From Patescibacteria group bacterium (GTDB lineage: Bacteria; Patescibacteriota; Microgenomatia; UBA10105; UBA927): DNA of 64,000 bases. Location of the stretch: assembly GCA_038062895.1 (NCBI GenBank), contig JBBTWJ010000014.1, positions 4,036 through 68,035 of the forward strand, given 5' to 3'. How positions within the stretch are numbered: the stretch's first letter is position 1; every line of letters begins with the position of its first letter. The translations under genes were made by a program, and so were the position numbers. This document shows positions 1 through 43,257 of this stretch, piece after piece. The notes below the pieces were generated by a model, which saw only the letters and a program-made list of their open reading frames with translations, was not told the DNA's origin and ran no database searches.

Positions 1-1114
1 CATTTTTTAAGTCGGCAAACTCAGATATATTGGTTTTCAGCTTAAGGCTTTGGGAATTTTGGCTTTTGTCTATGGCAAAAAAGCAGAAAGCCTGACTGAT
101 GTCTATGAAAAACTCATTCTTTTCCGGAATTGTATGGATAGTAGACAAGCGATAGTCATTAAGCATTCTATTTCTAAGCTCATAACTTTGTTTATCGCTT
201 AATAAGGTTGAGGGTATTAATAGACCCACTTTACCATCTTTTTTAGTGTAATTTTCAACTATTTCTTCAACAAATAATTTATATAAATTTAATGTTCCAT
301 TATTGTATTTATATGTATGATTCTTTCTTATAAAGTTTAATAATTTTGTTATTTGTTTTTTATAATTATCAGTTTCGTCATTGTATTTATTTGAATTAGC
401 CTTAAGTAGTTTGTAGGGTGGGTTTGTAAGAACAATGTCAAAACCATCTGTTCTATTAAAGATGTGTCGTGGGTCATTTTTAACGATAAAATCTTTATTA
501 AGATCAAAAAGGAGGTCGCCTATGTAGAGGTTCTTTGGCGGTATTGTTACTTTGAAAGTATATTTTGCGTTAATATAATGAGGAATTATTTGACTAAGTA
601 AAGAAATAGCTTCTGCATCTATATCAGCAAAATACATATTGTTGATAATTGTTTGTGCGTCTGCGTTTGTAGAATGTTTTTGATTGTCAAAAATATTATC
701 TAAATATGCTAAAGCGAAAATTCCAATACCCGAACAGGGTTCTAAGAAGCTTTTATTTAATGGGTTTATTGTCTTGTCATAAAGACTCACCGTTTCGTCT
801 GTAATTAACCTCGCAATATAATAATCGGTATAATAGATTCCGTTATGTTTTCTTTCATCTGTGCTTGAAAGTTTAACTTTCTCTTTTTTTTTCTGATGAG
901 TAAGACCTATGAGTTCAACGATCGCAATGTAGTTTAAATCTTTATTACTTGTTGCAAAATCGGATAGTAAGGTACTAAATGTCAATTCATTATTAATAGT
1001 CTTGTTTTTTAGAATTTCTAGTAAATTACTTATGATTACATCGTCATTAATGCCGTGTGAGGTAAGAGAGTTATAAATTGAGTATATTTTTCTTGTATTA
1101 CTTTGGGTAGGCAT
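1..1114 (-). CDS. N6-adenine DNA methyltransferase, N-terminal part (gene runs off window start)
   Basis: Own minus-strand translation from ATG at 1114: MPTQSNTRKIYS... It contains an EPCSGIGIF AdoMet motif (FxGxG) and a TNPPY catalytic motif (motif IV of amino-MTases). Not in the ORF track because it is truncated by the window edge. About 30% GC. Confidence 0.7.
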   Translation of the reverse strand, partial: MPTQSNTRKIYSIYNSLTSHGINDDVIISNLLEILKNKTINNELTFSTLLSDFATSNKDLNYIAIVELIGLTHQKKKEKVKLSSTDERKHNGIYYTDYYIARLITDETVSLYDKTINPLNKSFLEPCSGIGIFALAYLDNIFDNQKHSTNADAQTIINNMYFADIDAEAISLLSQIIPHYINAKYTFKVTIPPKNLYIGDLLFDLNKDFIVKNDPRHIFNRTDGFDIVLTNPPYKLLKANSNKYNDETDNYKKQITKLLNFIRKNHTYKYNNGTLNLYKLFVEEIVENYTKKDGKVGLLIPSTLLSDKQSYELRNRMLNDYRLSTIHTIPEKNEFFIDISQAFCFFAIDKSQNSQSLKLKTNISEFADLKN

Positions 1115-1143
1115 ATATTTATTATATTTGAAATCCTTAACAA

Positions 1144-1737
1144 TTATCCGTTTCTTATCAATCCTACAAATTTACCTCGTACTTCTAATTTTTGTGGTTC
1201 AATAACGAGATAATTCTTGTTTCTTGGTTCTAAGGTAATTTTCCCACCTCTTTTTCTAAAAACTTTTAAAGTTGCTCCATCTTCAGTAATAGCAACTATA
1301 ACTTCTCCGTTATTGGCTGTCATTTGGTGTTTAATCAAAACGATATCTTTATCAAGTATTCCCATATCGATCATGCTGTCGCCTTTAATCTTAAGGGCAT
1401 AATGCGGATACCTTGAGTCAATTTCAATATTTGAAGGAACTTGGATTTCTTCCGGGTTTTCAATTGGTTCGATAGGTTTTCCAGCAGCAATATAACCTAA
1501 TAAGGGGATATTGTGCTGGTTGGTTATTGGGGAAATACCCCTTGCTTTGTTTGCATTTTTAGTCAGATATCCTTTCTCTTCAAGCTCATTTACATAATAT
1601 TGTGCCGTACTTAAATTCTTACCTAAATAGTTGGCTATTTCATGAAGAGAGGGGGAAAACCCCTTTTCTCTCAAAAAAGAGTTAATAAAATCTAAGGTGT
1701 TTTTTTGTTTTCCAGTTAATGGTTGTATATCTTGCAT
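1144..1737 (-). CDS. lexA: LexA-type repressor (S24 peptidase with N-terminal wHTH)
   Basis: 197 aa. N-terminal LexA DNA-binding fold, an Ala-Gly cleavage site (YIAAGKP), a GDSM serine motif and a downstream KR. AT-rich. Sits 30 bp upstream of the MTase gene on the same strand. Confidence 0.85.
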   Translation of the reverse strand: MQDIQPLTGKQKNTLDFINSFLREKGFSPSLHEIANYLGKNLSTAQYYVNELEEKGYLTKNANKARGISPITNQHNIPLLGYIAAGKPIEPIENPEEIQVPSNIEIDSRYPHYALKIKGDSMIDMGILDKDIVLIKHQMTANNGEVIVAITEDGATLKVFRKRGGKITLEPRNKNYLVIEPQKLEVRGKFVGLIRNG

Positions 1738-1803
1738 ATATTATAAATATATGATAAATTTACAGTAAAGTCAAGAGTGAATTTTAAGGGGGTGAAATTA
1801 AAT

Positions 1804-2037
1804 ATGGCAAAACAAAATCAACATGTAGTACCGCATCAAGGTGATTGGGCAGTCAGAGGAGAAGGAAACTCAAGAGTTACTTCAATTCACCCGACACAAT
1901 CTTCGGCTTATGAAGTAGCAAGGAAAATTGCAATTAACAATAGGTCTGAGGTTGTTACTCACCGTCCTGATGGAACAATTAGGGATAAGGATAGTTTTGG
2001 GAACGATCCGTGTCCACCAAAAGACAAGAAGAATTAA
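1804..2037 (+). CDS. DUF2188 family small protein
   Basis: MAKQNQHVVPHQGDWAVRGEGNSRVTSIHPTQSSAYEVARKIA...DGTIRDKDSFGNDP matches the DUF2188 pattern. Strong SD (AAGGGGGTGA) 8 nt before the ATG at 1804. Confidence 0.7.
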   Translation: MAKQNQHVVPHQGDWAVRGEGNSRVTSIHPTQSSAYEVARKIAINNRSEVVTHRPDGTIRDKDSFGNDPCPPKDKKN

Positions 2038-2044
2038 TTCCAAT

Positions 2045-2962
2045 ATGGAAAATTTAATTAATAAAAAGGTAAAAATCGGAAGAAATGATCTCTATCCTTG
2101 TGGAAGCGGAAGGAAATATAAAAAGTGTTGTATGGTAAAAGAACCTACAGAGCAGTTGTTACCTGTAAAAGAGGTAAAAACAGTTATTAGCAATACGTAT
2201 GGGAATCTTTTTGATTTCAACAAAGAGTTAAAAAGTGTCGTAGATGGTATTTTTAAGAAAAAATGTAAGGCTGATGAATCCAAAACAGCATTTGCATCGT
2301 TTACCATAGGGAAAGCTTACAAAACACATGAAGCAATAATGATTTTATGTTCTGAAGGTTATGGTGAAGATGCCGCAATATTAGTCAGATCACTTTTTGA
2401 ACTATTAATAACTTTACTTTATATCTTAAAAGACTCTACAGACGAACGAGCCAACAGATATTATTCCTACGACTGGATTCTTCGCAAAAAAATGTTCGAC
2501 TACGCAAAAACTAAGCCAGAAATTGCAAAGGAAATGCAAGATAGAGCAACTAACCCTAAGATAGGCGATACAAACATTGAGGAAGTAATGAAACAGGCTA
2601 AAGTTGTGCAGGAAAAATATAAATATAACAATAAAGGTTGGTCGGATAAGTCAATTTACGATATGGCATCAGAGGTAGGGCGTATGGACCATTACAAGAC
2701 TATTTATGCTCTTCAGTCCCAAATTGCTCATACTGCAGTTAGAGTTATAAATGATTACGTTAAAGATAGCGGTTCAGGCTTAAATATAATGGTTGGTCCT
2801 GGTTTAAACTGGATTGAAAACGACCTAGTTGCGTTATTTGACTTCTATTATTCAATTGTTGGCGAGTGCGACAAACTATTTGAATTTGGTTATGCTAAGA
2901 AACTTGACGATATAGCTAAACGCTATCTTGCCCATGTGGGGGAAATCAATAATAAAACTTAA
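2045..2962 (+). CDS. SEC-C motif domain protein with uncharacterised C-terminal domain (possibly DUF5677-like)
   Basis: Starts MENLINKK.. with a SEC-C metal-binding motif (CGSGRKYKKCC) near the N-terminus. The internal ATG at 2045 is preferred over the track start at 1928, which overlaps the upstream gene. Confidence 0.65.
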   Translation: MENLINKKVKIGRNDLYPCGSGRKYKKCCMVKEPTEQLLPVKEVKTVISNTYGNLFDFNKELKSVVDGIFKKKCKADESKTAFASFTIGKAYKTHEAIMILCSEGYGEDAAILVRSLFELLITLLYILKDSTDERANRYYSYDWILRKKMFDYAKTKPEIAKEMQDRATNPKIGDTNIEEVMKQAKVVQEKYKYNNKGWSDKSIYDMASEVGRMDHYKTIYALQSQIAHTAVRVINDYVKDSGSGLNIMVGPGLNWIENDLVALFDFYYSIVGECDKLFEFGYAKKLDDIAKRYLAHVGEINNKT

Positions 2963-3005
2963 TTTGAAACAACCACCAAAAGGATCATCTTTTGAAACTA
3001 TAGAA

Positions 3006-3524
3006 ATGACTAAAGTAGACTTTTTTCAGGCATCACTTAATAAGCTACATGATGACGTAGGAACAATTCTCAGGTTACTTGATGAACACAATAAGCAATC
3101 TGCTCGTAAGGTAGGTTTTTGGGCAAGTATGAGGTTAATTATGCCAATTATTGAGGCGGTGGCAAATGTTACCGGAGAAAAACCCCAAGAGTTTCTTAAA
3201 AATCACTTAGAAGTTACTGCTCCTTACTTAACCTGGGATTTATTTAGACATTCACTTATCCACGGGGACTATATGCAACACGCAAAATACCAATCAAAAG
3301 AGATTGGTTGGGGTATCGCATTTATTGGAGTAGGCCATGTTATTACCAGTGGACACATAGGCATTGACGCTATACACCTTTACAACAAACTCAATGAATA
3401 TATAACCGCTGAAGTGGCAAAAAATGACCAAGCAGTCGTCAAAATTGAAGTAGGAGTTTTATATAAAAATCCAAAGCAGGAAGTTGTTGACGAGTTTAAT
3501 AAACTATGCGGTAAGGGTTTATAA
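3006..3524 (+). CDS. hypothetical protein (third gene of AT-rich operon)
   Basis: ORF 2928..3524. The internal start MTKVDFF at 3006 avoids overlap with the upstream gene. No recognisable motif. Confidence 0.45.
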   Translation: MTKVDFFQASLNKLHDDVGTILRLLDEHNKQSARKVGFWASMRLIMPIIEAVANVTGEKPQEFLKNHLEVTAPYLTWDLFRHSLIHGDYMQHAKYQSKEIGWGIAFIGVGHVITSGHIGIDAIHLYNKLNEYITAEVAKNDQAVVKIEVGVLYKNPKQEVVDEFNKLCGKGL

Positions 3525-3727
3525 TTGTTGGGATTGCTGAAGTGTAGTTTCTGGGTCAACACATAATTCAGCTCAGTCTACCGTACGAAACGTATCCCAG
3601 TTACTGAGCCTGTTGGCACTTAATATACTAAAATCGTGCTTGCAACCGTACATGCAACCTATGCAGGCAACCTGCCGGGTAGTTTAGATTTAAACCTCTC
3701 TCTTTATTAAATATCTGTTTTTTAACA

Positions 3728-3872: not shown

Positions 3873-4778
3873 TTATTTCAATCTTTTTTTCTCTTCCGGC
3901 TCATGGAGAAAGTTTTGTTTGGAGACGACTGAACGGCCGAGGCGTTTCTCAAGCTTTTTTCTTGCTCCTCCGGCTATATCGCCTCCGGCCTTGGCATCTG
4001 CTTTTAACTTGGGCACACCTTGGGAATCCTCATTCCGGTGAATTTCCGTCGTAGCGCGTTCGCCTAACATGTTAAAAATCAATTCAAAATCATCCATGTG
4101 GTCACGTAAATTCTCGCGTCGCAGACCCTTTAGTTTTTTATATTCACTCGGCGTGACCCCAAACGTGGCTTTAGAAATTTCTGCGGTCAGTATTTCATAA
4201 TCTCTGTCTTCTCTTGCTCCACGCTTCTGCCACTGGTCGGTCAACTCTTCCCGAATCGCAATCCCACGCATCCGTTTCTCTATCCAATCATCTGAATACC
4301 CTTTTAGCTTGTAGAGCATTCGAGTTCTCTTGGTGCCTAACTCCGGGTTTTCTATCTCCTGCACCCGCTCGTACCCCACGCGGGCTAGCCACCGTTTAAA
4401 AGGCTCAGCTTTTGGGGATGGTATGGATTGGATGAGTCGAAAAATACCTTCCGTATGCCAACAATAGGCTTTTTGTACTCCTCCCGGGGTTTCAATATCC
4501 AACATAAGGGGTGGTACAAATTGTACCCCTCCTTTGTCAGTCAATTTTGCTAGCTCCCCATCTCTCTCCTTGAGCCGTTTGAAGTATTGCGCTGGATCAC
4601 GAGAATTAGCTAACGCTTCGATGACATCATTCACCGAAAACCACCATTCATTGTTATAAATAGTTTTCCTGATCTTTTTGCCTTTAAACAGAGCGATTTT
4701 TGTTGCATCCATAAACAAATAAATACCTAATGAGTCAAAGTATACTCCACCTTCTGTAGGGACACGCCTCATGCTCAA
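3873..4778 (-). CDS. Bro-N domain / DinD-like (DNA-damage-inducible protein D family) protein
   Basis: 301 aa. N-terminal Bro-N-like segment (FKGKKIRKTIYNNEWWFSVNDVIEAL). The C-terminal segment KKLKGLRRENLRDHMDDFELIFNMLGE resembles E. coli DinD (KGLKKNQKILDHMGSTELAANLF). Confidence 0.65.
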   Translation of the reverse strand: MSMRRVPTEGGVYFDSLGIYLFMDATKIALFKGKKIRKTIYNNEWWFSVNDVIEALANSRDPAQYFKRLKERDGELAKLTDKGGVQFVPPLMLDIETPGGVQKAYCWHTEGIFRLIQSIPSPKAEPFKRWLARVGYERVQEIENPELGTKRTRMLYKLKGYSDDWIEKRMRGIAIREELTDQWQKRGAREDRDYEILTAEISKATFGVTPSEYKKLKGLRRENLRDHMDDFELIFNMLGERATTEIHRNEDSQGVPKLKADAKAGGDIAGGARKKLEKRLGRSVVSKQNFLHEPEEKKRLK

Positions 4779-4795
4779 AATATGATTTATATTCG

Positions 4796-5110
4796 TTACT
4801 GTATCCTTCCTGTGGCGGCTAAGAAAAGAACGATGGGGATACTCATCGTATACACCAATCCACCTATACCAAACATGACGAGTAAAATTACCAGAATTGA
4901 ATTTTTATACACAACGCTCATTGTTATGGGAAACTTCACCAACGTGGCGTACGTCCGACGACAGAGGGTAACAATAGAAACATTGAAAATTCTTTTCGAT
5001 ACCTTGTCAGCAGTGAGATAGGCTCCGTACAGCGCAGAACACACGTCATATACAAACTCTTTCCAAAAATATTTCCTCACCCGGATGGTAATACGTACTG
5101 CGCTATCCAT
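4796..5110 (-). CDS. small membrane protein (2 C-terminal TM helices), hypothetical
   Basis: Track ORF 4796..5122 begins with TTG. The first ATG (MDSAVR...) is at 5110. A hydrophobic C-terminal segment follows. Preceded by motif copy 2. Confidence 0.35.
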   Translation of the reverse strand: MDSAVRITIRVRKYFWKEFVYDVCSALYGAYLTADKVSKRIFNVSIVTLCRRTYATLVKFPITMSVVYKNSILVILLVMFGIGGLVYTMSIPIVLFLAATGRIQ

Positions 5111-5116
5111 ATACTT

Positions 5117-5140
5117 ACTCAAAGTATACTCTCCTCACGC
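5117..5140 (-). promoter_or_regulatory. copy 2 of conserved promoter-like motif (GAGGAGAGTATACTTTGAG)
   Basis: Lies 7-30 nt upstream of the ATG at 5110 on the minus strand. Confidence 0.4.
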
Positions 5141-5187
5141 CAGGGAAGGGCATGGTACATCCCCCACGCGGCAAATAGCTATGAAAT

Positions 5188-6006
5188 TTATTTCAATTTT
5201 TTGATGGAGGGATTACCTAGTAGAGATTGCATTTGGGAAATGGCGGTTTGGTTTAGTTGAACTAATCTAACGGATTGGGAAATTTCTTGCCTGATGAGCT
5301 GGGCATTGAGACCCTCGAGGTTGGCCAGTACTACAAGTTGGGTGACGTCGGCATAGTCGCGGATATTACCATCTTTGCCCGGATTTTCATCCCGCCACAA
5401 TTTGGCTGTTTTGCCAAACAACGCCATGTTGAGTACATCAGCCTCACTGGCATAAACAATACTTGTTGTTTGTTGCGAAACAGAGGGAGGAACCAGGTGT
5501 TCTTTGATCGCATCGGTGTGGATTTTATAGTTAATCTTAGTCAGAGTCCTTTTCACATCCCAACCAAGCCGCAATTTTTCACTCTCTTCATTTTTTAGTC
5601 TCTGAAACTCTTTGATGAGATAAATTTTAAATTCAGGGCTTATCCACATCCCAAATTCAAAGGCAATATCTTTATGGGCATATGTTCCACCATATCGTCC
5701 GGCGGTTGCCTTGAGACCAACAGCATTCGTCTTTTTGACCCATTCTTTTACACTTATCTTGTAGTTATTCAAGCCTGCCTGACTTTTAATTGTGGCAAAT
5801 TCGCCATAATTAAAATTTGGATTATGTAACTTTTCCCATATACCCAAAAATTCAACGGTATTTCTATTTCTGAGCCAATCGGAAATAAAAAAATCACCAT
5901 CTTTTGCTTTCAACATGTCGGTAAGCGAAATAAAATCATCACCCCCAACATTTAAAATAATGCCGATTTGACTGCCCTGAACTATAATTTGTTTACTTTT
6001 CGTCAT
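5188..6006 (-). CDS. KilA-N domain protein (phage antirepressor-type DNA-binding protein)
   Basis: 272 aa. The N-terminal 100 aa match KilA-N/APSES-like proteins (QIGIILNVGGDDFISLTDML...). The C-terminal half is conserved in KilA-N domain-containing proteins (YAHKDIAFEFGMWISPEFKIYLIKEF). Confidence 0.7.
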   Translation of the reverse strand: MTKSKQIIVQGSQIGIILNVGGDDFISLTDMLKAKDGDFFISDWLRNRNTVEFLGIWEKLHNPNFNYGEFATIKSQAGLNNYKISVKEWVKKTNAVGLKATAGRYGGTYAHKDIAFEFGMWISPEFKIYLIKEFQRLKNEESEKLRLGWDVKRTLTKINYKIHTDAIKEHLVPPSVSQQTTSIVYASEADVLNMALFGKTAKLWRDENPGKDGNIRDYADVTQLVVLANLEGLNAQLIRQEISQSVRLVQLNQTAISQMQSLLGNPSIKKLK

Positions 6007-6019
6007 ATTGCAATAATTA

Positions 6020-6038
6020 GCTCAAATTATACTCCCCC
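6020..6038 (-). promoter_or_regulatory. copy 3 of conserved promoter-like motif (GGGGGAGTATAATTTGAGC), 22 nt upstream of KilA-N ATG
   Basis: Identical core to copy 1. No SD between the motif and the ATG. Confidence 0.45.
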
Positions 6039-6064
6039 TACCTACTAAACACGATCTAACATCA

Positions 6065-6418
6065 TTATGACTCTATGACCACTCCCTCCAGGACGTCCAT
6101 ATCGATGAAGGGGTACAGGAGCCTCAGATTTTTGGTATTGGAACGGTAAAAAAGATCCGCAACGACCCCGATAAACGGGAGGAGCCCCAGGAGATAATCC
6201 AAAAAGATATGCCAACCCATCGTCCAATAAATCCGCGACGGGACCTTCAATTGATACGCAATCCAGAAGAGATAGCAGGAGATACCTGCGCCAATCATGC
6301 TTCCGAACCCCGGCAAGATGTCCAGGATCGGATCTATCCCAAACCGGATACCAAAAAAGTTAAATTTGGTATCCATGAGAGTCACCAGACGCTGAGCGAA
6401 CTCAATATGTGATTTCAT
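6065..6418 (-). CDS. DUF4112 family membrane protein
   Basis: 117 aa, two TM helices, GIDPILDILPGFG ... GLLPFIGVVADLFYRSNTKN pattern typical of DUF4112. Confidence 0.55.
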   Translation of the reverse strand: MKSHIEFAQRLVTLMDTKFNFFGIRFGIDPILDILPGFGSMIGAGISCYLFWIAYQLKVPSRIYWTMGWHIFLDYLLGLLPFIGVVADLFYRSNTKNLRLLYPFIDMDVLEGVVIES

Positions 6419-7302
6419 TGAGGACTATACCCCTTCCCAATCTTCCACACGCCTTTTTCACGAAACGCAGGGATCGTCTGTCGACGGGCAGCGTTAAATA
6501 TGGCCGGAGCACCAAGATTATGCTCTTTGACATATGTGGCCAGAGTAACTATTTCACCACCTTGTAAATAGGTAATACGTTTATGCAACGACTCACATAT
6601 TGCCCGCGTAAGAACACGTTCCGTTGTGCTGGTCTTTTTGTCATCACGATATTGCGTAAATCCCCGATAATATTCCTGCTTTTCTTTATCACGGATGATA
6701 ATATTCGGAAAACCTATTCGTTGGAGTTGAAGATTGATCAGCGCTCTTCCTATGCGGCCATTACCGTCATTAAATGGATGAATCGTTTCAAACTCCAGAT
6801 GAAAACGTGCGATAGCATCAAGAGGATATAGCGTCAGATTACCCGTATATTCCTCAAGTAACCGATCCATCAACCGATCGATATGTTCCGGCGCAGGTGC
6901 GACAAAAGCTCCCACACGTACATATTCATTTGCGCTGCGAAACCGTCCGGCTATTTCATCATTTATTCCTACGAGGAGCATACCGTGAAGCGTACAAATA
7001 AATTCTTTGGATAACTCACGATCTTTTGATAACGCTCGTATAAAAGCCACAACACGGGCTAAATTTTTAGCCTCATACACTTCACGAACGCTCACCTGCC
7101 GGGATACTTCCATTTCCAGTAATATTTTTTCCGTTTCCGGAAGGCTGAGGGTCGAGTTTTCAATCGCGTTGGAGTTGTAGACACTTTCTGCGATTTCCGC
7201 CTCATCGATGAGGGTAAGGAGTGCGTCTTTGCCTATCCGCAACCGGTCAAATTGAGTCTTGATTATTCGTATTTTATCGGTGATCAATCGCGATGTAGCC
7301 AT
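6415..7302 (-). CDS. Fic family protein (AMPylase/phosphocholine transferase fold)
   Basis: Canonical Fic motif HPFNDGNGRIGRAL in a 295-aa protein. Confidence 0.85.
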   Translation of the reverse strand: MATSRLITDKIRIIKTQFDRLRIGKDALLTLIDEAEIAESVYNSNAIENSTLSLPETEKILLEMEVSRQVSVREVYEAKNLARVVAFIRALSKDRELSKEFICTLHGMLLVGINDEIAGRFRSANEYVRVGAFVAPAPEHIDRLMDRLLEEYTGNLTLYPLDAIARFHLEFETIHPFNDGNGRIGRALINLQLQRIGFPNIIIRDKEKQEYYRGFTQYRDDKKTSTTERVLTRAICESLHKRITYLQGGEIVTLATYVKEHNLGAPAIFNAARRQTIPAFREKGVWKIGKGYSPQ

Positions 7303-7630: not shown

Positions 7631-7680
7631 TTAGAAGATATTAGAAGATGTTGCAAGATGTTGCAAGATGTTGCAAGATA
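7631..7680. repeat. five tandem 10-bp repeats (TTAGAAGATA x2, TTGCAAGATG x3) in divergent promoter region
   Basis: Perfect 10-bp periodicity read directly from the sequence. Lies between the wHTH gene start (7621) and the MBL gene start (7729). Confidence 0.8.
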
Positions 7681-7728
7681 TCACATGATTATGGCAAACG
7701 GCGACAGGAATACGGTACACTAATAATA

Positions 7729-9078
7729 ATGAAAATTAAATTTCTCGGAGCGGCAGGGATGGTGACGGGATCTTCCTATATTCTCACATCCGGATCCGGA
7801 CAATCCATCCTAATCGATCTTGGATTATTTTTAGGCACTCCGGATATCAACAAGCTCAATGAACAACCGTACGCCTATGACTGCAGCCAATTAGCCGGTG
7901 CCGTCTTGACGCACGCCCATCTGGATCACTGTGGCAGGCTGCCGATACTCTTGCCCCAGGGCTACAAAGGAAATATCTGGATGACGAGGGCAACGGGCGA
8001 CCTGACGGAAATATCGTTACTGGACAGCGCAAAAATTGCAAAGGAGGGAGACCGCCGCCCCCTGTTTGATAAAGCGCTCGCCGAGCAAACCATCAAACGG
8101 TTTATGACCGTCGACTACCGTACTCCTGTTTCCATCGGCAACTTCACCGTTACGCTGCGTGACGCGGGCCATATCCTGGGATCAGCAATCTTGGAAATAG
8201 TGGATACCAAGCCAGACTCCGGGGTCAAAAAGGTCGTCTTCAGCGGTGATTTGGGCAATACGCCGGAGGACTTACTCGAAGAGACAGAGTACCTTGATAG
8301 TGCCGATTGCGTCGTCATGGAGTCCACCTACGGCGACCGGCTCCATCCTATCTCTTCTGCCGAAGTTGCCCTTGAGTCAGAAATACACAGTATCGAAGCC
8401 TCCGGCGGGACGCTTCTTATCCCGGCATTTGCACTGGACCGGACCCAGGAACTTTTGCACATGATCATGCACATGAAACAATCGGGGAAAATGGGAGCCG
8501 GCACACCGGTTTTTTTGGACAGTCCGATGGCCGAAAAAGCGACGCTCGTCTATGGGAAGTATCCGCAAATTTTTAATACCCATATCCGGGATGATTTCAA
8601 AACCGGAAATCCCTTCGGGTTTGCCGGACTTACCGTCGTTGCCACCAACCAACAAAGCGACGCGCTCTTTACGCTTACCGGACCCAAAGTCATCATCGCC
8701 GGAAGCGGCATGATGACCGGAGGAAGAATTCTCAACCTTGCGACCCATTTTCTGCCGATTGCTTCTACCCGGTTATTTATCGTGGGATATCAGGGCGAGG
8801 AGACGCTGGGACACAACATACTTGCCGGAAATAAACAGGTGTCCATCAACGGCATCACCGTCCCCGTCCGGGCGACGGTCAACGATACACAAGGGATGAG
8901 TTCTCATGCCGACCAGAAACAGCTCATCGCATGGCTGGGGCACATCAAGCAGGTACAAAAAGTCATCCTCACCCACGGCGAAGACGGACCGCGCAACGCA
9001 TTGGCTCAAAAAATATCAGAAGATTTGGGGTTTACTAATGTCTCCCTCCCGGTCCTCCATCAGGAAATACAACTATAA
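7729..9078 (+). CDS. MBL-fold metallo-hydrolase of the beta-CASP (RNA-metabolising) family
   Basis: THAHLDHCG motif II, beta-CASP arrangement and a C-terminal H motif. The true start MKIKFLGAAG is at 7729. Confidence 0.8.
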   Translation: MKIKFLGAAGMVTGSSYILTSGSGQSILIDLGLFLGTPDINKLNEQPYAYDCSQLAGAVLTHAHLDHCGRLPILLPQGYKGNIWMTRATGDLTEISLLDSAKIAKEGDRRPLFDKALAEQTIKRFMTVDYRTPVSIGNFTVTLRDAGHILGSAILEIVDTKPDSGVKKVVFSGDLGNTPEDLLEETEYLDSADCVVMESTYGDRLHPISSAEVALESEIHSIEASGGTLLIPAFALDRTQELLHMIMHMKQSGKMGAGTPVFLDSPMAEKATLVYGKYPQIFNTHIRDDFKTGNPFGFAGLTVVATNQQSDALFTLTGPKVIIAGSGMMTGGRILNLATHFLPIASTRLFIVGYQGEETLGHNILAGNKQVSINGITVPVRATVNDTQGMSSHADQKQLIAWLGHIKQVQKVILTHGEDGPRNALAQKISEDLGFTNVSLPVLHQEIQL

Positions 9079-9112
9079 CGTCACCAGCGCATCGTGCTAT
9101 ACTATAAGCTAC

Positions 9113-9364
9113 ATGAATGACATTGTGACGGTAGAAGAGGCCGCTATGTTTCTCCATAAACATCCGGGAACCATACGGCGGTGGATAGAAAGCAATAAAC
9201 TCAAAGCCCGGCATCTTTCCGCCGGCGGACACGGGATCTATGCGATACTCCGGATGGATCTTCTGGAATGTATGATCGCCGGGGATATAAAGGAAAAAGA
9301 AAAAATCAAACACGCGCCTACCCCTAAAGCCCTACCCGATCCACAAACCCAACTTCCGCTTTAA
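9113..9364 (+). CDS. helix-turn-helix (excisionase/MerR-like HTH_17) DNA-binding protein
   Basis: 83 aa from an internal ATG. VTVEEAAMFLHKHPGTIRRWIESNKLKA is a typical HTH_17 segment. Confidence 0.5.
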   Translation: MNDIVTVEEAAMFLHKHPGTIRRWIESNKLKARHLSAGGHGIYAILRMDLLECMIAGDIKEKEKIKHAPTPKALPDPQTQLPL

Positions 9365-10530
9365 GGCGTATCCCCTGTCCCCTCCGGAAGGCTAAACACA
9401 CGGATTTCAGGAAGTGCCGGACCCATGATGCCCTGGAGTTCGCCGTACATTTTTGCCATATTATCGATAGCCCGATGGATCTGCATCTCACGCTTTTTCC
9501 ACAGCCGCTCCATACTCCGGCGTTCCGTGGATAAATCTTCCTCCATCCCCTTGATGGTTTCCGCATATGCTTCAAACCGGTGCCGGAAGGTGTCGCTACT
9601 GAGATATTGATAAAGAAATTCAAGCTTCTCATCTTTGTTGGCAGCTACCGACCGGGCTTGAGCGACTTGCATGACCGCGCGTCGCAGAAGCTCTGCCAAC
9701 GGTAATACAAATGGATATGTGGTCACGACGACCCCCTCCCGCATGGCAAATGTCCCGATGTCATCCGGTACGCTTTCGCTAATGAGAACGACAATCGTCG
9801 CCCCGGCATTCCTGCCGTCTTCACGAAGTTTGGGAAGCCAACTCGGCGTCCACTTGGCGCGTTTGGTCTCCCAGAGAATGATGCCCGCCGCCTTCCCCGC
9901 CTGATTTTTGACGGTTTGGATGATGTCTGCCCCTTGCGTGCCTTTGCCAACCGGAGCCACATCATCGTAGATAAATGCGGATTTCAGTTTCTCTTCGATA
10001 TTCAGTTCGAGGACTTCCCCCTGCAATTGTTGAGACTTCTGCGCGAGTTTATTTTTGGCATCGTCCAGGGATTTTTTGGTATCGTCCAATTGCTTTTTGA
10101 GCTCCAAGACCTCCATCTGGGATTTCTCACCGAGCGTTTTGGTGAGTTCCTCGTGATTTTTATCAATGGCTTCATTCAGGCGCTTCTCATATTCGAGGCC
10201 GCGCTTCTCGTCCTGATCTTTGAGGTCCCGGATGGATTTATTGAGATCCAGAAGTTGAATCGTGAGCGCTTTATTTTGTTCCCGCAGTTCACCAACCTGG
10301 TTCTCGCGGTCCTTCATCTGGATGGAAACATCCGCCACTGCCTTCTCCCGCGCCGTCTTCTCAACTTCCTCACGCACACGGTCAAGTTCTGCTTTATGGG
10401 AAGCGGCGACCGTATCCTTCACCTGCTCCTCCACTTCATGAAGAAGCGCCTTCGTGATCTCTATTTCGGCACCGCAATGGATACATTTGATGGTAGCTCC
10501 CATAGTAGAGGCATTGTAAACGATTGACAC
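9361..10530 (-). CDS. DUF2130-like protein (N-terminal zinc ribbon, long coiled coil, C-terminal conserved domain)
   Basis: N-terminal CIHCG zinc ribbon, an E/K-rich coiled-coil region of about 150 aa, and a conserved C-terminal globular part. Confidence 0.5.
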   Translation of the reverse strand: MSIVYNASTMGATIKCIHCGAEIEITKALLHEVEEQVKDTVAASHKAELDRVREEVEKTAREKAVADVSIQMKDRENQVGELREQNKALTIQLLDLNKSIRDLKDQDEKRGLEYEKRLNEAIDKNHEELTKTLGEKSQMEVLELKKQLDDTKKSLDDAKNKLAQKSQQLQGEVLELNIEEKLKSAFIYDDVAPVGKGTQGADIIQTVKNQAGKAAGIILWETKRAKWTPSWLPKLREDGRNAGATIVVLISESVPDDIGTFAMREGVVVTTYPFVLPLAELLRRAVMQVAQARSVAANKDEKLEFLYQYLSSDTFRHRFEAYAETIKGMEEDLSTERRSMERLWKKREMQIHRAIDNMAKMYGELQGIMGPALPEIRVFSLPEGTGDTP

Positions 10531-10563
10531 GCGCCGCTCAACCTGCCTATGATAGAAAGAAGC

Positions 10564-11979
10564 ATGAAATATGTAAAAATACTATTCCTCTTGGTCGCCG
10601 TCCTTATCCTCTTCTCCTTCAAATCTCCCTTGGTCGCCGCGCAGGAAAAACTCATCACACCGGATACATTCATGCCGCCGATTCCTCAAGATTCACCCAA
10701 CCTCGGACAGGACCATGCATATTCAGTGTTGCTGCGCGGCAACGGCGATGCGGTCGTCACCATGCGCGCGGCCTTTACCAATGAGGAGCCGACTCCCACA
10801 AACATCTTTTCCCTCCGTATCCCAAGGGTAGAACCCAAACGGGTGAGCGCATTTCAGATCTCCCGCGAGCCGCAGTGCCTGCGTTTCAAACCCTACAATC
10901 CAAGCGACTTGAGTGGACAACCGAATCAGTGCCAGGAATATCAGGATGCCAATTACTTCCAGTGGTATGGCCAGGCGAAGTACCAAAAAGCGACCACACA
11001 ATTTACGGGTGACACGCTCACGATCACCCTCCCTAAGCCGGTACTTCCTGCGAAATCCGGAAGCGTGTTGGTGGTCTTGATGGCCAGCGGATACGCCAAA
11101 AAAGATCCTTTCGGCGCATATAGCTATGCGTTCGAAACATTTCAGGTAGAAAAATCCAGTATCACGAAATCCACAATCGGCATAAGCGTCGACAGCGATC
11201 TCGTTCTTGACGGCGCCAAAGGCACGGTGAATTACCGGTTTAGCGAAACAGAAGCCCTTTCCCTCGCCGCAGGAGCGGAAAAAGAAGCAATGGTCAGTCC
11301 GCAACTTGATCAACTGTACAGTCAAACAGGCTATGGCACGATCACAAAAACCGCTTCCTACCTGGAGCCCCTGGAATCCTATACGGTCAAAGGACGCTAT
11401 GCGGATTCCCTCATCCGGCTGTATGGTAAAGGAATTCTCATAGGATTGGGCATCTTCGCGGCCGTTTTAGTCCTCCTCTTTTTCTTGGGCAGATCTGCCC
11501 TGCGCGCCCTTACTAACCCACGAATCAATGGAGCGACGCCTTCATCCGTGGACGTGATGCTCATGATTGGCGGGAGCTTCCTGTCTGCAGGACTCATCGC
11601 CGTCTATACGGCTGGATTATTTTTCCTGCGCACTACCATCCAGCAAGTTGTCTCGTATGAACTCGTGGGTGTCGTCCTTATTTTAGCGACGATCATCTCG
11701 ATTGGTCTGTACGGATTGCTTCTAATTGCCCCCGCTATCCTCGTGGGCCTCCGGCGCGGACTCGCGTGGGGTATGGGGACATTTGGATTGACTATTCTCT
11801 TTCTCATCATTAACACGTTTATCATGATCCTCACGCTCACACTTCTTTACGGCAACGCAGGCGGACCGATGTATCCTATGATGCGCAGCTCCGGTTCAGC
11901 CGTGAATAACCGTATCGATAGCATCCAGGAAACCCCACCATCCGGAGAATCTTCCCTCCCACTCAAGTCCCCGAAATAA
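10564..11979 (+). CDS. secreted/membrane protein (signal peptide, extracytoplasmic domain, C-terminal multi-TM region)
   Basis: MKYVKILFLLVAVLILFSF signal sequence and 4-5 C-terminal hydrophobic helices. Confidence 0.5.
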   Translation: MKYVKILFLLVAVLILFSFKSPLVAAQEKLITPDTFMPPIPQDSPNLGQDHAYSVLLRGNGDAVVTMRAAFTNEEPTPTNIFSLRIPRVEPKRVSAFQISREPQCLRFKPYNPSDLSGQPNQCQEYQDANYFQWYGQAKYQKATTQFTGDTLTITLPKPVLPAKSGSVLVVLMASGYAKKDPFGAYSYAFETFQVEKSSITKSTIGISVDSDLVLDGAKGTVNYRFSETEALSLAAGAEKEAMVSPQLDQLYSQTGYGTITKTASYLEPLESYTVKGRYADSLIRLYGKGILIGLGIFAAVLVLLFFLGRSALRALTNPRINGATPSSVDVMLMIGGSFLSAGLIAVYTAGLFFLRTTIQQVVSYELVGVVLILATIISIGLYGLLLIAPAILVGLRRGLAWGMGTFGLTILFLIINTFIMILTLTLLYGNAGGPMYPMMRSSGSAVNNRIDSIQETPPSGESSLPLKSPK

Positions 11980-11995
11980 GATAGTATTACTTCGT

Positions 11996-12766
11996 ATGTG
12001 GCGTATCCTTATTGGCATAGTGGTGGTCGGAATCCTCTCCTTGATGTTTCTACAGCCGAAACCCATGCCGGTTGCACCCCAACATCCGTCACCCTCCCCG
12101 ACGATTACTCGTAAGCCTACGCCGCCGGCGCAATCCGTCGACGTTTCGATTGACACCATCACGTATCGCGTCGCCTGGGCACTGGTCCGTGACCTCTCTT
12201 CGTTGACCCTCATCCCCAACTTCACCCAAAAACGCACTGCCCGCTCCCTCATAGATAGCGACGAATGCACATACGTCGTGAGCGGTGGTTTTTATACGAA
12301 GGATGATCAACCGACCGGACTCTTCTCGGCTCAAGGAAAAACCATCCGGACTTCCATCCCGAATAATTTGCTCAACGGATTTTTTTCTATGGATCAGAAT
12401 GATACCGCATCGATTTTGTCGTCGCCGCCTGGAGAATCCGTCCGGCTCGCCCTCCAAACCGGCCCCATCCTATTCCAAAACGGGATGCCGGTCAAACTGG
12501 CTATCCGAGACGATGAATTTGCCCGGCGTGTGGGACTGGGAGTTATGAAAAATGGATCGGTAGTATTCTTTATCATCTACGACCCAGAGAACACCTGGAG
12601 TGGACCGAAGCTTGCTGATATGCCAAATATTTTATCAAAAATTTTACCTCATCTTACTATTACCGATGCCGTCAATCTCGATGGTGGCTCTGCGTCGGCG
12701 TTTATCCGGGATGAGTTTTCTCTTCAGGAACTCACGTCAGTCGGAAGCTTCTTTTGCATCCGGTAA
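11996..12766 (+). CDS. phosphodiester glycosidase-like (NAGPA/DUF2233-like) exported protein
   Basis: N-terminal TM, a P-rich linker, SGGFY and DGGSAS segments reminiscent of the NAGPA domain. Weak assignment. Confidence 0.4.
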   Translation: MWRILIGIVVVGILSLMFLQPKPMPVAPQHPSPSPTITRKPTPPAQSVDVSIDTITYRVAWALVRDLSSLTLIPNFTQKRTARSLIDSDECTYVVSGGFYTKDDQPTGLFSAQGKTIRTSIPNNLLNGFFSMDQNDTASILSSPPGESVRLALQTGPILFQNGMPVKLAIRDDEFARRVGLGVMKNGSVVFFIIYDPENTWSGPKLADMPNILSKILPHLTITDAVNLDGGSASAFIRDEFSLQELTSVGSFFCIR

Positions 12767-12767
12767 C

Positions 12768-13781
12768 TTATTGAAGATATTTTTCACTATTCCTATTGTG
12801 TTCTTCCAGGGTCCGCGCGTAATGCACACCGCCTTTTGGATCGTGAAGATAATACCAATAATCACTCTCTTTAGGGCTTATCACGGCCCGGATAGAAGCA
12901 AGACCTGGATTGGCAATCGGCCCCGGTGGAAGTCCCGTATGAAGATACGTGTTATACGGGGATTTCACTTTTTTGTCTTCATCGGTAAGTGACTTTTTCC
13001 ACCACGTCTTTTCCCGTACCTGATAGCCCAGAGCATACTGCAGTGTCGCATCAGCCTGGATAGGCCAGTCTGCTTGTATGCGGTTGAAAAGAATACCGGC
13101 GATTACCGGACGGTCTTCCTCACTTCTCCCCTCCCGCTCAACGATAGAAGCCAGGGTCATGACTTCATCAAAAGATAAACCGGTCTTTTTGGCATCAGAG
13201 CGCATCTTCTCGTCTACCTTTGCCTCAAACGTCGAGAGAAAAAGCCCTGCGACAGCGCCCACCGTGGCATCTTTGGGCATGAGATACGTATCCGGAAACA
13301 TGTAACCTTCACGCGCTACTTTGACAAATTCACTCTCGGGAATATCTAATTCTTTATTGAGTTTCGCCGCCACCTCTTCTACTCGCCAACCTTCCAGTAT
13401 CGTCACCCACACGTCCAACGTCCCGTGTGTGAGCTCACGAGCAAGTTCTCCTGCGTCCATAGTAGGATTCAAACGATAATCCCCGGCTTGGAGATCCCGC
13501 TCAATACCCATGACTTTTACGAGGAGATAAAATCCGGTGGAACTTCGGATAAGTCCCGCAGCCGCAAGTCTGGCAGCAATACTTTTTACCCCTTCGCCGC
13601 GTTGGACAACAAAAATTTTAGGGCTGGTATCCGTAGAATCCACGGGACCTATCGCATCGCGCCACCATGCCCACGAAAAAAGCGCAAGAGCCCCTGCTAC
13701 AGCAAAAAAAAGAAAAAACCGATAAGGATAAGAATTATTTGACTTCATCAAGTGTCGCACGACGAAAGGTATCAGCCTCAC
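12768..13781 (-). CDS. mltG: endolytic murein transglycosylase MltG (YceG family)
   Basis: Conserved EGYMFPDTY and ASIVEREG motifs, an N-terminal TM and a LysM-like segment. Confidence 0.8.
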   Translation of the reverse strand: MRLIPFVVRHLMKSNNSYPYRFFLFFAVAGALALFSWAWWRDAIGPVDSTDTSPKIFVVQRGEGVKSIAARLAAAGLIRSSTGFYLLVKVMGIERDLQAGDYRLNPTMDAGELARELTHGTLDVWVTILEGWRVEEVAAKLNKELDIPESEFVKVAREGYMFPDTYLMPKDATVGAVAGLFLSTFEAKVDEKMRSDAKKTGLSFDEVMTLASIVEREGRSEEDRPVIAGILFNRIQADWPIQADATLQYALGYQVREKTWWKKSLTDEDKKVKSPYNTYLHTGLPPGPIANPGLASIRAVISPKESDYWYYLHDPKGGVHYARTLEEHNRNSEKYLQ

Positions 13782-13926
13782 TATCGTACATATATACGCG
13801 ACCGCAATGGCACGTTACCCGCGTAAAGCCTTTCCCTGTTTTCTTTTCCAGCAGCCGGCCGCATCCGACGCACTTTCCTTGCGACAGCAACCAGGCCTGG
13901 ACCGGTGAGATAATGTTTTTAAACAT
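13735..13926 (-). CDS. small zinc-ribbon protein (CxxC...CxC)
   Basis: 63 aa with CVGCG and CHCG pairs, just upstream of mltG. Confidence 0.35.
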   Translation of the reverse strand: MFKNIISPVQAWLLSQGKCVGCGRLLEKKTGKGFTRVTCHCGRVYMYDSEADTFRRATLDEVK

Positions 13927-14004
13927 ACAATGAACTCTAAACTTTAAAATGTAAACTTTAAAATTTTAAAAAGTTTGAAGTTTAAAGTTTGAATTTTCAA
14001 GTAA

Positions 14005-15264
14005 TCATTCTATCGTATATATGGGTACGTTCTTGATCGTTTCGACGGCTTCAGCAAGTCTCCATTTGTCCGATGAATAGAACGTATATAGTATATCACC
14101 CTTGTCCACCGTTTCCTCGAGCTTACGATCAAGGTACATCCCCGCGCGTTTATCCGTCGGGGATCCCAATATACGGCACACCACGGTGATCTCCTGGTTG
14201 TTGATACGACTCACCCTACCGGACCTCACGCTTTTGACTTCATGGCGGTATTTTCCCAACGCCATGTGGGTACCATCGACATCCGGGTCACCCCCTTGGA
14301 CTTTGATGATCTCCCGCATTTTTTTCATAGCCTGACCGGAAACCAGGATCTCGCGCGCGACTTTTTCTCCATCCATACTTTCTTTACCTTTTGTATCGGC
14401 GAAACAAAGGGAGAGAAGCTTGCCTGCCAGCCGCAATGCCTTCGCTTCGAGAGCCAGCGGCCGCTCCGGATCTTGGGCAAGAACGGCAAACACATCGCGC
14501 ACCTCCAAAACCGGTCCGATGCCGCGACCGGCATTTTCCAGCGCCTCATTGATGTCGGTGACCACCTTTATATCGAACTTACCGGCGAGGAATACAAATT
14601 TACGGGCGATCACCTCGGCATCTTTGAAATGCTGGATTTTCATGGTCGGTCCGACGGGAATATCAAACACCACGTGCGTCGCGCCCGATGCCACTTTTTT
14701 GGCCATAATGGAAACGATGATTTTATCAAAGGATTCAAACGCCAGAGGCGCTTCCACTTGAATGATCACGTCATCGGCGGGAGCCAGCCCCAAGTGACCG
14801 CCCCACACAATACACCCTCCTGCTTTGGCGACAAGTGCTTCAATCTGTTTTGGACTGAATGTGACAGGAGCCACGACCTCCATGGTGTCGGCAGTTCCCG
14901 CCGGCGATGTGATCGCACGGGAAGAAGTTTTCGGAATCTGAAAACCGGCTGCGGCGATGATGGGCACGAGAATCATGGTCGTCCGCGTACCGGCGACTCC
15001 GCCGGTTGAATGTTTATCCGCCACTATTCCGTTAAAATGAAGTTTCGGACCGGTATCCACCATGGCTTTCGCCAAAAAATAGAGTTCTTCATCATTAAAT
15101 CCCTCTTTAAATCCTGCGGCGGCAAAATATGTGGTGAGCACCGGCCCCAGACGCTCGTTGGCAATCTCATCCATGATAGAAAAAATTTCGTGGTAGGAAA
15201 GCGCCTTCCCGGTGAGCTTCTTTTTAATGGCTTCGATGGCAAATTGTTTTGAGCCTGTACTCAT
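14005..15264 (-). CDS. deoA: thymidine phosphorylase / AMP phosphorylase family (pyrimidine-nucleoside phosphorylase)
   Basis: Conserved KHSTGGVAGTRTT and TSPAGTADTME segments. Start MSTGSKQF overlaps the upstream sortase stop (ATGA). Confidence 0.85.
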   Translation of the reverse strand: MSTGSKQFAIEAIKKKLTGKALSYHEIFSIMDEIANERLGPVLTTYFAAAGFKEGFNDEELYFLAKAMVDTGPKLHFNGIVADKHSTGGVAGTRTTMILVPIIAAAGFQIPKTSSRAITSPAGTADTMEVVAPVTFSPKQIEALVAKAGGCIVWGGHLGLAPADDVIIQVEAPLAFESFDKIIVSIMAKKVASGATHVVFDIPVGPTMKIQHFKDAEVIARKFVFLAGKFDIKVVTDINEALENAGRGIGPVLEVRDVFAVLAQDPERPLALEAKALRLAGKLLSLCFADTKGKESMDGEKVAREILVSGQAMKKMREIIKVQGGDPDVDGTHMALGKYRHEVKSVRSGRVSRINNQEITVVCRILGSPTDKRAGMYLDRKLEETVDKGDILYTFYSSDKWRLAEAVETIKNVPIYTIE

Positions 15265-43061: not shown

Positions 43062-43154
43062 TTGCACCGGCGCCGGGAATTGAACCCGGTCTGGAACCTG
43101 CGATGGTTATATGTAGTTTTCAAGACTACCCGTGCAATCCGTACACTACGCCGG
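43062..43154 (-). tRNA. tRNA-Ser (anticodon UGA) with long variable arm
   Basis: Manual fold of the minus strand. Acceptor stem GCCGGCG/CGCCGGT, a D arm, anticodon stem GTAGT/ACTAC with loop CTTGAAA (U33, UGA), a variable arm of about 20 nt, T arm CCGGG-TTCAATT-CCCGG and discriminator G. Confidence 0.7.
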
Positions 43155-43257
43155 CTTCTCTTACCAGCTTGGTTTACGATTTTTTGCATCTAATACCCCC
43201 TTGGTGAAACAGTAATCCCTTGTGAATCTTCAGAGGACAGAGGTCATCGAGCGGATA

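Follow-up and report, generated by a model that had tools for sequence, protein, structure and literature searches.

The known controls that time costly or self-harming anti-phage systems are few: CapH/CapP, WYL-domain regulators and quorum sensing. C proteins, in turn, are small DNA-binding autoregulators of the Xre type, with a helix-turn-helix and without a protease domain, which form the first gene of restriction-modification operons, typically ahead of the endonuclease gene, and could delay or balance restriction versus modification. Here, we describe a locus in which LexA, the oldest damage sensor, appears to have been built into a mobile defence island of an ultra-small uncultured bacterium. 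The locus lies at the left end of a 64,000-nucleotide stretch of a Patescibacteria genome (assembly GCA_038062895.1, contig JBBTWJ010000014.1, positions 4,036 to 68,035), referred to below as the window. There, a lexA gene stands between the methylase operon of a type IIS restriction-modification system and a divergent operon for a DUF2188 protein, a SEC-C/DUF5677 protein and a third protein, designated P186. We propose, with a probability of about 0.6, that this is a horizontally acquired, lexA-guarded two-operon defence island in a Patescibacteria chromosome, half of which is held by the left end of the window, and that LexA represses both operons until DNA damage relieves the repression. 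Both the repression and its induction by damage are inferred from the anatomy of the locus and from comparison with its relatives.

With the canonical LexA/SOS regulon, the locus shares the protein family, all of the catalytic features and a site in the gene's own promoter. That regulon also includes LexA-repressed toxins (tisB, symE) and colicins, and the repression of toxic genes by LexA is established (PMC3874152). In contrast to canonical SOS, lexA is found here inside a mobile island of foreign composition and is physically fused into restriction-modification operons, and the candidate operator, TTAC-N-GTAA, is unlike the described SOS boxes. The closest parallel in terms of logic may be the CapH/CapP DNA-damage regulators, which are encoded ahead of CBASS and DUF2188 operons, on the opposite strand (bioRxiv 10.1101/2022.04.27.489752). 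In both cases a damage-responsive repressor inactivated by proteolysis faces a defence operon, although here this is predicted from anatomy, and the cargo includes CBASS or DUF2188, as in two related loci (L044 and L062) and in the window. However, CapH/CapP consists of two proteins, an Xre-type helix-turn-helix repressor and a metallopeptidase, as opposed to a single self-cleaving LexA, and co-transcription with methylases has not been described for it. Neither a metallopeptidase nor an Xre gene is present in the island, so that the LexA module would parallel CapH/CapP rather than belong to it. The WYL-domain regulators BrxR and CapW of BREX, CBASS and defence islands (PMC9122601, PMC9122589) are likewise dedicated transcription factors at the edge of interchangeable defence systems, but they belong to an unrelated protein family and rely on ligand sensing instead of RecA-stimulated self-cleavage. 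The likeness to C proteins lies in a small autoregulator as the first gene of a restriction-modification operon; the difference is that here it is a full LexA placed ahead of methylases, with the endonuclease outside the operator. A response of some defence genes to LexA or to DNA damage is known in general. In other words, the regulatory principle is familiar; the novelty resides in a LexA that is embedded in the island and linked with type II methylases, in the candidate operator, and in the new candidate system. Within the body of literature searched, nothing relevant came up on LexA-headed restriction-modification operons or on LexA in Patescibacteria.

Composition of the island and identity of its repressor

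The first 3540 positions of the window have a GC content of 0.333, whereas the remaining window is at about 48%. Measured against 56 one-kb windows past 8 kb (mean 0.483, standard deviation 0.033), the four one-kb windows of the island lie at z = -5.7, -4.5, -4.3 and -3.3, which bears out the foreign composition that an earlier prediction made from the sequence alone (the original prediction) had ascribed to this low-GC start. Its length, which had been put at 3.5 kb, needed correction. Contig L001 (assembly GCA_964357735.1) matches the window with 100% and 99.99% identity on the two sides of the lexA start, over 11.7 kb in total, and because of this identity could be used as a leftward extension of the window. 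On L001 the AT-rich DNA runs 3.4 kb past the window edge, making an island of about 7 kb (L001 about 8200-15100) with a GC content of 0.336. The host remainder of the window is ordinary chromosome, with genes for AlaRS, FtsK, RNase J, PNPase, IF-2, DnaK and MurJ. The GC content of lexA itself (0.34) resembles that of the low-GC Patescibacteria loci in which its relatives reside (0.33-0.39) and not that of the present host (0.48), and lexA therefore arrived with the island; a lexA with a GC content typical of its genome, which would have spoken against the original prediction, is not what is seen.

The lexA gene (1144-1737, minus strand) encodes a protein of 197 residues with a winged-helix LexA DNA-binding domain (Pfam LexA_DNA_bind, residues 5-67, E 1.3e-11) and an S24 domain (Peptidase_S24, E 6e-23). 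It scores 155.8 bits against the NCBIfam equivalog TIGR00498, for which the cut-off is 110.95, and aligns end to end with the Thermotoga and E. coli LexA structures, the closest solved structure being Thermotoga LexA (3k2z, E 1e-30). By family membership, the repressor is a genuine LexA and not merely the LexA-like protein it had been taken for. The Ala85-Gly86 cleavage site and the Ser121/Lys158 dyad are invariant across 33 relatives, which argues that damage sensing has been kept. The protein itself is found on several public contigs. Relatives with 61-93% identity are from uncultured bacteria, the named ones being Patescibacteria (Microgenomates, Curtissbacteria). No second LexA is encoded in the window.

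A foreign repressor could also be a maintenance repressor of the CI/SetR type, in which case the window would hold the remnant of a decayed integrative or conjugative element and the flanking genes would be its cargo. Serine recombinases do occur near lexA in three related loci (L046, L050 and L055), conjugation genes (TraG/TraC, NikA) are nearby in L062, and the island in the window is bordered by Bro-N, KilA-N, Fic and Gp49 genes. However, there is no integrase, replication or transfer gene within the 7-kb island, no convincing direct repeats were found at its borders, and in most loci the genes that would be directly controlled are defence and methylase genes rather than life-cycle genes. 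Moreover, a scan of 2.9 million viral contigs with the LexA alignment gave only three distant S24 relatives, with at most 46% identity over the C-terminal domain, and a phage origin of LexA was rejected. We consider a mobile-element repressor to be quite improbable.

The control region and the two operons

The region shared by both operons is only 66 bp long (window 1738-1803). It overlaps a bidirectional control block (1732-1774) that reads as two fully overlapping back-to-back promoters, one found by promoter scan (PlexA) and one read by eye (plus strand). A block of about 45 bp, with the consensus CTTGAC-TTTACTGTAAAwwTATCATAAAyTTAyTGTAAATGCAAG, has been retained in 11-12 loci, although the genes on either side bear no relation to each other from locus to locus. 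On the minus strand, PlexA as listed by the promoter scan has the -35 element TTGACT (1774-1769), a 17-nt spacer and the -10 element TATATT (1751-1746), and across loci it follows the pattern TTGACw, 17-18 nt, TAwAwT. In all aligned loci the -10 element of lexA ends about 5 nt ahead of the ATG and there is no Shine-Dalgarno sequence, so the lexA mRNA is probably leaderless or nearly so. The candidate divergent promoter on the plus strand consists of the -35 element TTGCAT (1732-1737), a 17-nt spacer and TGn-TAAATT (1752-1760); its -35 element overlaps the lexA start codon and is the reverse of the conserved ATGCAA with which lexA begins.

Inside these promoters lies the candidate LexA operator, TTTACAGTAAA (1759-1769), with the palindrome TTAC-N-GTAA at 1760-1768. 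It falls within the PlexA spacer and, at the same time, where transcription from the divergent promoter is predicted to start, and is marked out by conservation and uniqueness. The exact 9-mer has its single occurrence in the 64-kb window at 1760-1768, the exact 11-mer occurs once in the island, and the 10-mer is found among the fetched loci almost only in front of lexA genes. In L046, L052, L056 and L058 a second copy of the palindrome is present 22 bp away, in the mirror-image position over the lexA start codon, and in L056 the unit formed by the two copies comes close to two-fold symmetry. The island has no further copy, neither ahead of the endonuclease gene nor anywhere else. The search of 1738-1803 for LexA-box-like palindromes, advised by the original prediction, has thus turned up a conserved operator-like site within overlapping promoters and no canonical SOS box, neither CTGT-N8-ACAG nor GAAC-N4-GTTC. 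All this makes TTAC-N-GTAA a good candidate operator. The form of the candidate LexA box named for comparison with regions upstream of repair genes is TTACNGTAA. Another palindrome, CATATAT-N5-ATATATG over the lexA start, is not kept in other loci and was treated as chance in AT-rich DNA.

On the lexA side, the next gene on the same strand encodes an N6-adenine methylase, its ATG standing 29 nt from the repressor gene, in agreement with the close spacing noted before. Since this spacer (1115-1143, minus strand) has neither a terminator-like site nor a Shine-Dalgarno sequence at working distance, we read lexA and the methylase gene as one operon; the matching gaps in seven other loci range from a 4-nt overlap to 19 nt. 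The window edge cuts the methylase, leaving the N-terminal 371 residues (1-1114, minus strand) with motif I EPCSGIG followed by TNPPY (Pfam Eco57I, E 4.2e-14). The full-length protein of 630 residues (L001 10624-12516) carries Eco57I and TaqI_C domains and aligns with positions 1-517 of the 523 in the NCBIfam profile TIGR02987 (met_A_Alw26), its score of 319 bits (E 5e-95) falling short of the cut-off of 353.5 bits. It is followed on L001, with a 4-nt overlap, by a C5 methylase of 375 residues, which is circularly permuted: motif X (GNAVPP) stands ahead of motifs I (DLFCGAGG), IV (PPCQ) and VI (ENV), and its match to the dcm profile is split in two, residues 138-312 corresponding to profile positions 1-163. 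This permutation is a hallmark of M.Alw26I, M2.Eco31I, M.Esp3I and M2.BsaI (PMC5944983). A convergent gene (L001 13623-15008) encodes an endonuclease of 461 residues with the Pfam domain RE_Alw26IDE, which matches the full TIGR02986 profile with 388 bits (E 6.6e-116; curated cut-off 443.85).

Taken together, these genes read as a complete type IIS restriction-modification system of the Alw26I/Eco31I/Esp3I type, the methylase operon of which is headed by lexA. The same trio of RE_Alw26IDE endonuclease, met_A_Alw26 methylase and permuted C5 methylase characterizes Alw26I, Eco31I and Esp3I (BsaI, BsmBI), and Eco31I likewise has two separate methylase genes. Compared with them, all three proteins are divergent here, the endonuclease and the adenine methylase being assigned as divergent family members because they score below the NCBI curated cut-offs. 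In addition, lexA heads the methylase operon, an arrangement for which no description was found in the literature on the family. The leftward extension on L001 has therefore shown that restriction partners were indeed hidden by the window edge, namely the rest of the methylase, the second methylase and the Alw26I-family endonuclease, whereas the BREX-like or specificity partners that had also been envisaged are absent from what is an ordinary type IIS system. As a separate observation, a 22-nt inverted repeat with 86% complementarity (1112-1133 and 1732-1753) brackets lexA exactly, one arm lying over the lexA start and the other just ahead of the methylase start, which has a TATAAT upstream and no Shine-Dalgarno sequence. 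The repeat may be chance in AT-rich DNA, or it may provide the methylase gene with an additional promoter or operator.

The divergent operon, on the plus strand, begins with the gene for a DUF2188 protein of 77 residues (1804-2037; Pfam DUF2188, 2.4e-23). The strong Shine-Dalgarno sequence expected for it is present upstream (AAGGGGGTGA). The protein also matches the full profile of the PADLOC candidate PDC-S16 (E 1.6e-35), an entry that denotes a candidate defence gene only, and DUF2188 genes occupy the equivalent position in L044 and L058. In the literature, DUF2188 has been noted beside CBASS, Thoeris and CapH/CapP-regulated operons (for CapH/CapP, bioRxiv 10.1101/2022.04.27.489752). The second gene (2045-2962) encodes a protein of 305 residues with an N-terminal SEC-C zinc motif. 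Most of this protein is the all-helical domain DUF5677 (E 3.6e-40), which had gone unnamed in the original prediction. DUF5677 relatives come from uncultured bacteria, the few named ones being Patescibacteria, and their N-terminus carries SEC-C, HTH_17 or nothing, a pattern suggesting that a head for binding nucleic acid or a partner is attached to a helical body that is itself conserved. The structural model has a predicted local distance difference test score (pLDDT) of 85, and HEPN-domain chains are found among its many generic bundle matches.

The third gene (2964-3524) starts with a TTG one base past the DUF5677 stop codon. All 40 homologues of its product begin with MKQPP..., and this start is encoded in the window from TTG 2964; consequently, the protein has 186 residues (hence P186) and not the 172 residues given when an ATG start was assumed. 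Apart from this correction, the five genes described earlier (methylase, LexA repressor, DUF2188, SEC-C protein and third gene) are all present. The P186 family is rare, with 183 representative clusters among 1.84 billion proteins, and a homologue search of reference genomes found only five loci. Searches of Pfam, PADLOC and NCBIfam with P186 and 76 family members gave no match, and a Foldseek comparison of the P186 model with PDB structures gave no significant hit. R57, P61, R95 and H100 are invariant in 76 diverse members (20-44% identity), R95-H-S-L-I-H100 forms an R-x4-H motif that agrees with the R-x4-6-H catalytic motif of HEPN proteins, and the modelled fold seems weakly HEPN-like. As the leading reading, P186 may be a HEPN-like RNase effector, and HEPN toxins (HEPN-MNT systems, e.g. 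PDB 7ae2 and 5yep) are among the closest known systems. The P186 gene is found directly 3' of a variable partner gene, which is DUF5677 in about 12 of the 31 fetched loci. The closest relatives of P186 (about 90% identity; L014 8354-10504, L009, L015 and L032) are paired with a 224-residue protein without a family match, and in other loci still other genes take this place. This partner was rejected as a DUF5677, and the idea that P186 and DUF5677 are paralogues was likewise rejected after profile-profile comparison (probability 0.1). In L014, a gene for an 8xMP membrane protein lies just upstream of the P186 pair, and 8xMP is also found in TIR operons by other lexA genes. When every open reading frame of the fetched loci was searched with a hidden Markov model, the TIR/8xMP operons by other lexA genes yielded no P186-like protein. 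The window operon contains no CD-NTase or TIR signal enzyme, such as would mark CBASS or Thoeris; such enzymes occupy the equivalent position in L040, L044, L045, L055, L056 and L062.

Neighbourhoods of related LexA proteins

Our survey of gene neighbourhoods covered 13 distinct LexA proteins with 55-100% identity; they come from uncultured bacteria, the named ones of which are Patescibacteria. A methylase gene follows lexA on the same strand in eight of the loci, at distances from a 4-nt overlap to a 29-nt gap, so that lexA beside a methylase, which had been regarded as an anomaly, is the common state in this clade. The methylases belong to four unrelated families (Eco57I-type, C5, D12 and N4/N6), from which it follows that the junction arose repeatedly, and the endonucleases paired with them are of the ThaI, BglI/SfiI, BamHI, HinfI and Alw26I types. 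The window has the Eco57I-type and then the permuted C5 methylase, with the Alw26I-type endonuclease. A C5 methylase is found in L022 and in L040, where ThaI endonuclease and Vsr accompany it, and a D12 methylase followed by an N4/N6 methylase in L044. N4/N6 methylases follow lexA in L045 (with a BglI/SfiI-type endonuclease), L049 (with a BamHI-type endonuclease) and L055, and a D12 methylase does so in L056, together with a HinfI-type endonuclease and an N4/N6 methylase. For L022, L044 and L055 no further system gene is listed.

On the other side, a divergent operon faces lexA in all 13 loci, and in at least eight of them it contains known or candidate defence domains (CBASS, TIR, caspase, pPnuc, DUF2188). 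The expected arrangement of a LexA repressor facing divergent defence genes is thus a recurrent one. The cargo comprises small HNH, TIR and 8xMP proteins in L040 and L056, TIR and caspase in L055, DUF2188, CD-NTase and Cap15 in L044, SAVED and CD-NTase in L062 (on a contig with conjugation genes), SMODS/AGS_C in L045, pP_pnuc_1 in L054, DUF2188 with two unknown proteins in L058, P186 alone in L022, and unknown proteins in L046, L049 and L052. A common first gene of the divergent operons was considered and rejected: DUF2188 is found in three loci, small HNH in two, and the genes elsewhere are unrelated. In 11 of the 13 loci the divergent operon begins 38-76 nt from lexA; the exceptions are L055, with 267 nt, and L062, where the start as called gives about 30 nt.

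Where the island of the window is homologous to the other loci at the nucleotide level, the homology ends at gene boundaries. With L040 it covers the intergenic region and lexA only, and with L044 it extends from the DUF2188 stop codon to the base ahead of the methylase ATG; the two share DUF2188, but the genes after it differ. With still other loci the P186 gene alone is common (87-91% nucleotide identity), its upstream partner there being different. L040 and L056, in turn, have the same left-hand cassette but different restriction-modification systems. Judging by these sequence boundaries, cassettes are exchanged around a conserved lexA hub.

High variability of cargo on both sides is also a feature of defence hot spots flanked by core genes. 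Hence, lexA might be an ordinary housekeeping SOS repressor, the neighbourhood of which is favoured for cassette insertion without any regulatory coupling. The protein does pass the LexA equivalog cut-off, it is the only LexA in the 64-kb window, and several of its relatives reside on large chromosomal contigs of 215-500 kb. However, a housekeeping gene would not be expected to share the foreign composition of the island in which it lies, and no conserved core genes are found on the outer sides of the cargo. Furthermore, the methylase genes are joined to lexA with no terminator between them and so would be co-transcribed with it, and in the 11 loci with gaps of 38-76 nt the divergent promoters must overlap PlexA and the palindrome. 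We find a housekeeping LexA at an insertion hot spot unlikely.

A narrower role is conceivable as well, namely that LexA only times methylase versus endonuclease expression upon entry into a new cell, while the DUF2188/DUF5677/P186 operon is an independent neighbour. That lexA heads methylase operons with such different methylases is in keeping with this, and autoregulated first-gene regulators are the classic C-protein logic (review PMC3874152). The arrangement in L016 (7104-10105) also fits: genes for a small HTH_17 regulator of 59 residues, Vsr and a C5 methylase stand back to back with those for DUF5677 and P186, in the two-operon layout of the window but with another small regulator in the place of LexA. 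On the other hand, a defence-type operon stands opposite lexA even in the five relatives without a methylase, the intergenic region leaves no room for independent promoters, and the invariant cleavage site and Ser-Lys dyad speak for a retained damage sensor. C proteins, moreover, are generally small Xre-type proteins, usually encoded before the endonuclease gene, and not self-cleaving S24 proteins. A role confined to control of the restriction-modification system therefore seems to us as doubtful as the housekeeping one.

Several observations weigh against a LexA-guarded pair of operons and account for our restraint. The divergent promoter was read by eye and is the weaker of the two, agreeing with the consensus at 8 of 12 positions, which is why the promoter scan did not list it. 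The half-sites of the candidate operator, with only about 5 bp between them, are spaced more tightly than those of known LexA boxes, and no canonical box is present. The two promoters by themselves could account for part of the conservation of the block. Five of the 13 LexA relatives lack a downstream methylase, and the 13 loci were chosen for their long contigs and not by context, so that they do not constitute a census. Finally, a DUF5677 gene tested singly in Enterococcus was not among the protective genes (PMC12632615). On the whole, the original prediction is supported in part.

If both operons are indeed guarded by LexA, the island might work as follows. LexA dimers would bind the TTAC-N-GTAA operator or operators inside both overlapping promoters and hold down the leftward operon of lexA, the N6-adenine methylase and the circularly permuted C5 methylase as well as the rightward operon of DUF2188, the SEC-C/DUF5677 protein and P186, a possible HEPN-type RNase effector. 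DNA damage or single-stranded DNA, resulting from phage attack or self-restriction, would activate RecA, LexA would cleave itself at Ala85-Gly86, and both operons would be switched on. The defence cassette with its potentially toxic effector would then be expressed only when needed. The convergent endonuclease gene, completing the type IIS system, would have its own promoter and, being without an operator, would stay constant; the extra methylase would shield newly repaired, unmethylated host DNA from it. Upon transfer to a host without a LexA of the same type, methylase would be made first and repression would follow later, as with controller proteins. If confirmed, such a mechanism would suggest how type II systems spare their host during DNA repair, and would nominate DUF2188, SEC-C/DUF5677 and the new R-x4-H protein as a candidate system.

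It is tempting to go one step further. The recurring layout with different cargo suggests a portable damage-sensing switch for anti-phage genes: the Patescibacteria lexA with its 45-bp promoter/operator might serve as an SOS-sensing hub, with methylase cassettes on one side and abortive-infection cassettes (CBASS, Thoeris-like TIR, DUF5677/P186 and others) on the other, swapped at gene boundaries. Damage would then arm second-line defences and raise methylation, and the DUF2188/DUF5677/R-x4-H trio would be a new LexA-controlled defence system. We put this generalization forward tentatively, as somewhat more likely to fail than to hold. If it is true, the raised methylation would be the type II equivalent of the damage-induced restriction alleviation of type I systems. 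With its confirmation, a major branch of uncultured bacteria would also be added to those with damage-gated immunity, and the genes divergent from lexA of this clade would become a simple genomic marker for new defence systems in such genomes.

Genes around the island and its relatives

Some of the LexA relatives look as if they were seated in mobile elements. In L046 (1-7037), the operon divergent from lexA includes a gene for an FtsK_gamma protein, and past this operon, on its strand, there is a gene for a large serine recombinase. In L062, genes for TraG/TraC, NikA, RadC and a Gp49/HTH (helix-turn-helix) pair are present, and the CBASS with SAVED and CD-NTase stands opposite lexA.

In the window, four more genes adjoin the island at 3873-7302, where the GC content is intermediate (0.36-0.47). 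They encode Bro-N (PADLOC PDC-S13, E 5e-102), KilA-N (PDC-S22, E 9e-130), DUF4112 and Fic (SoFic/PDC-S04) proteins, and the defence or mobile-element region therefore exceeds the island described here. At the opposite border, directly past the endonuclease gene and about 3.7 kb to the left of the window edge, a gene of the Gp49 family (HigB-like toxin; L001 15400-15771) stands where the composition regains the host level.

Further to the right, the transition to host composition (7648-10530) contains a beta-CASP/RMMBL nuclease-like gene (476 residues), a small HTH_17 gene and a DUF2130 gene. The sole tRNA gene in the window, for tRNA-Ser (TGA; 43064-43155, minus strand), lies a long way from the island, for which it is no obvious integration site. 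The window also has a second, canonical RNase J gene at 31106-32842.

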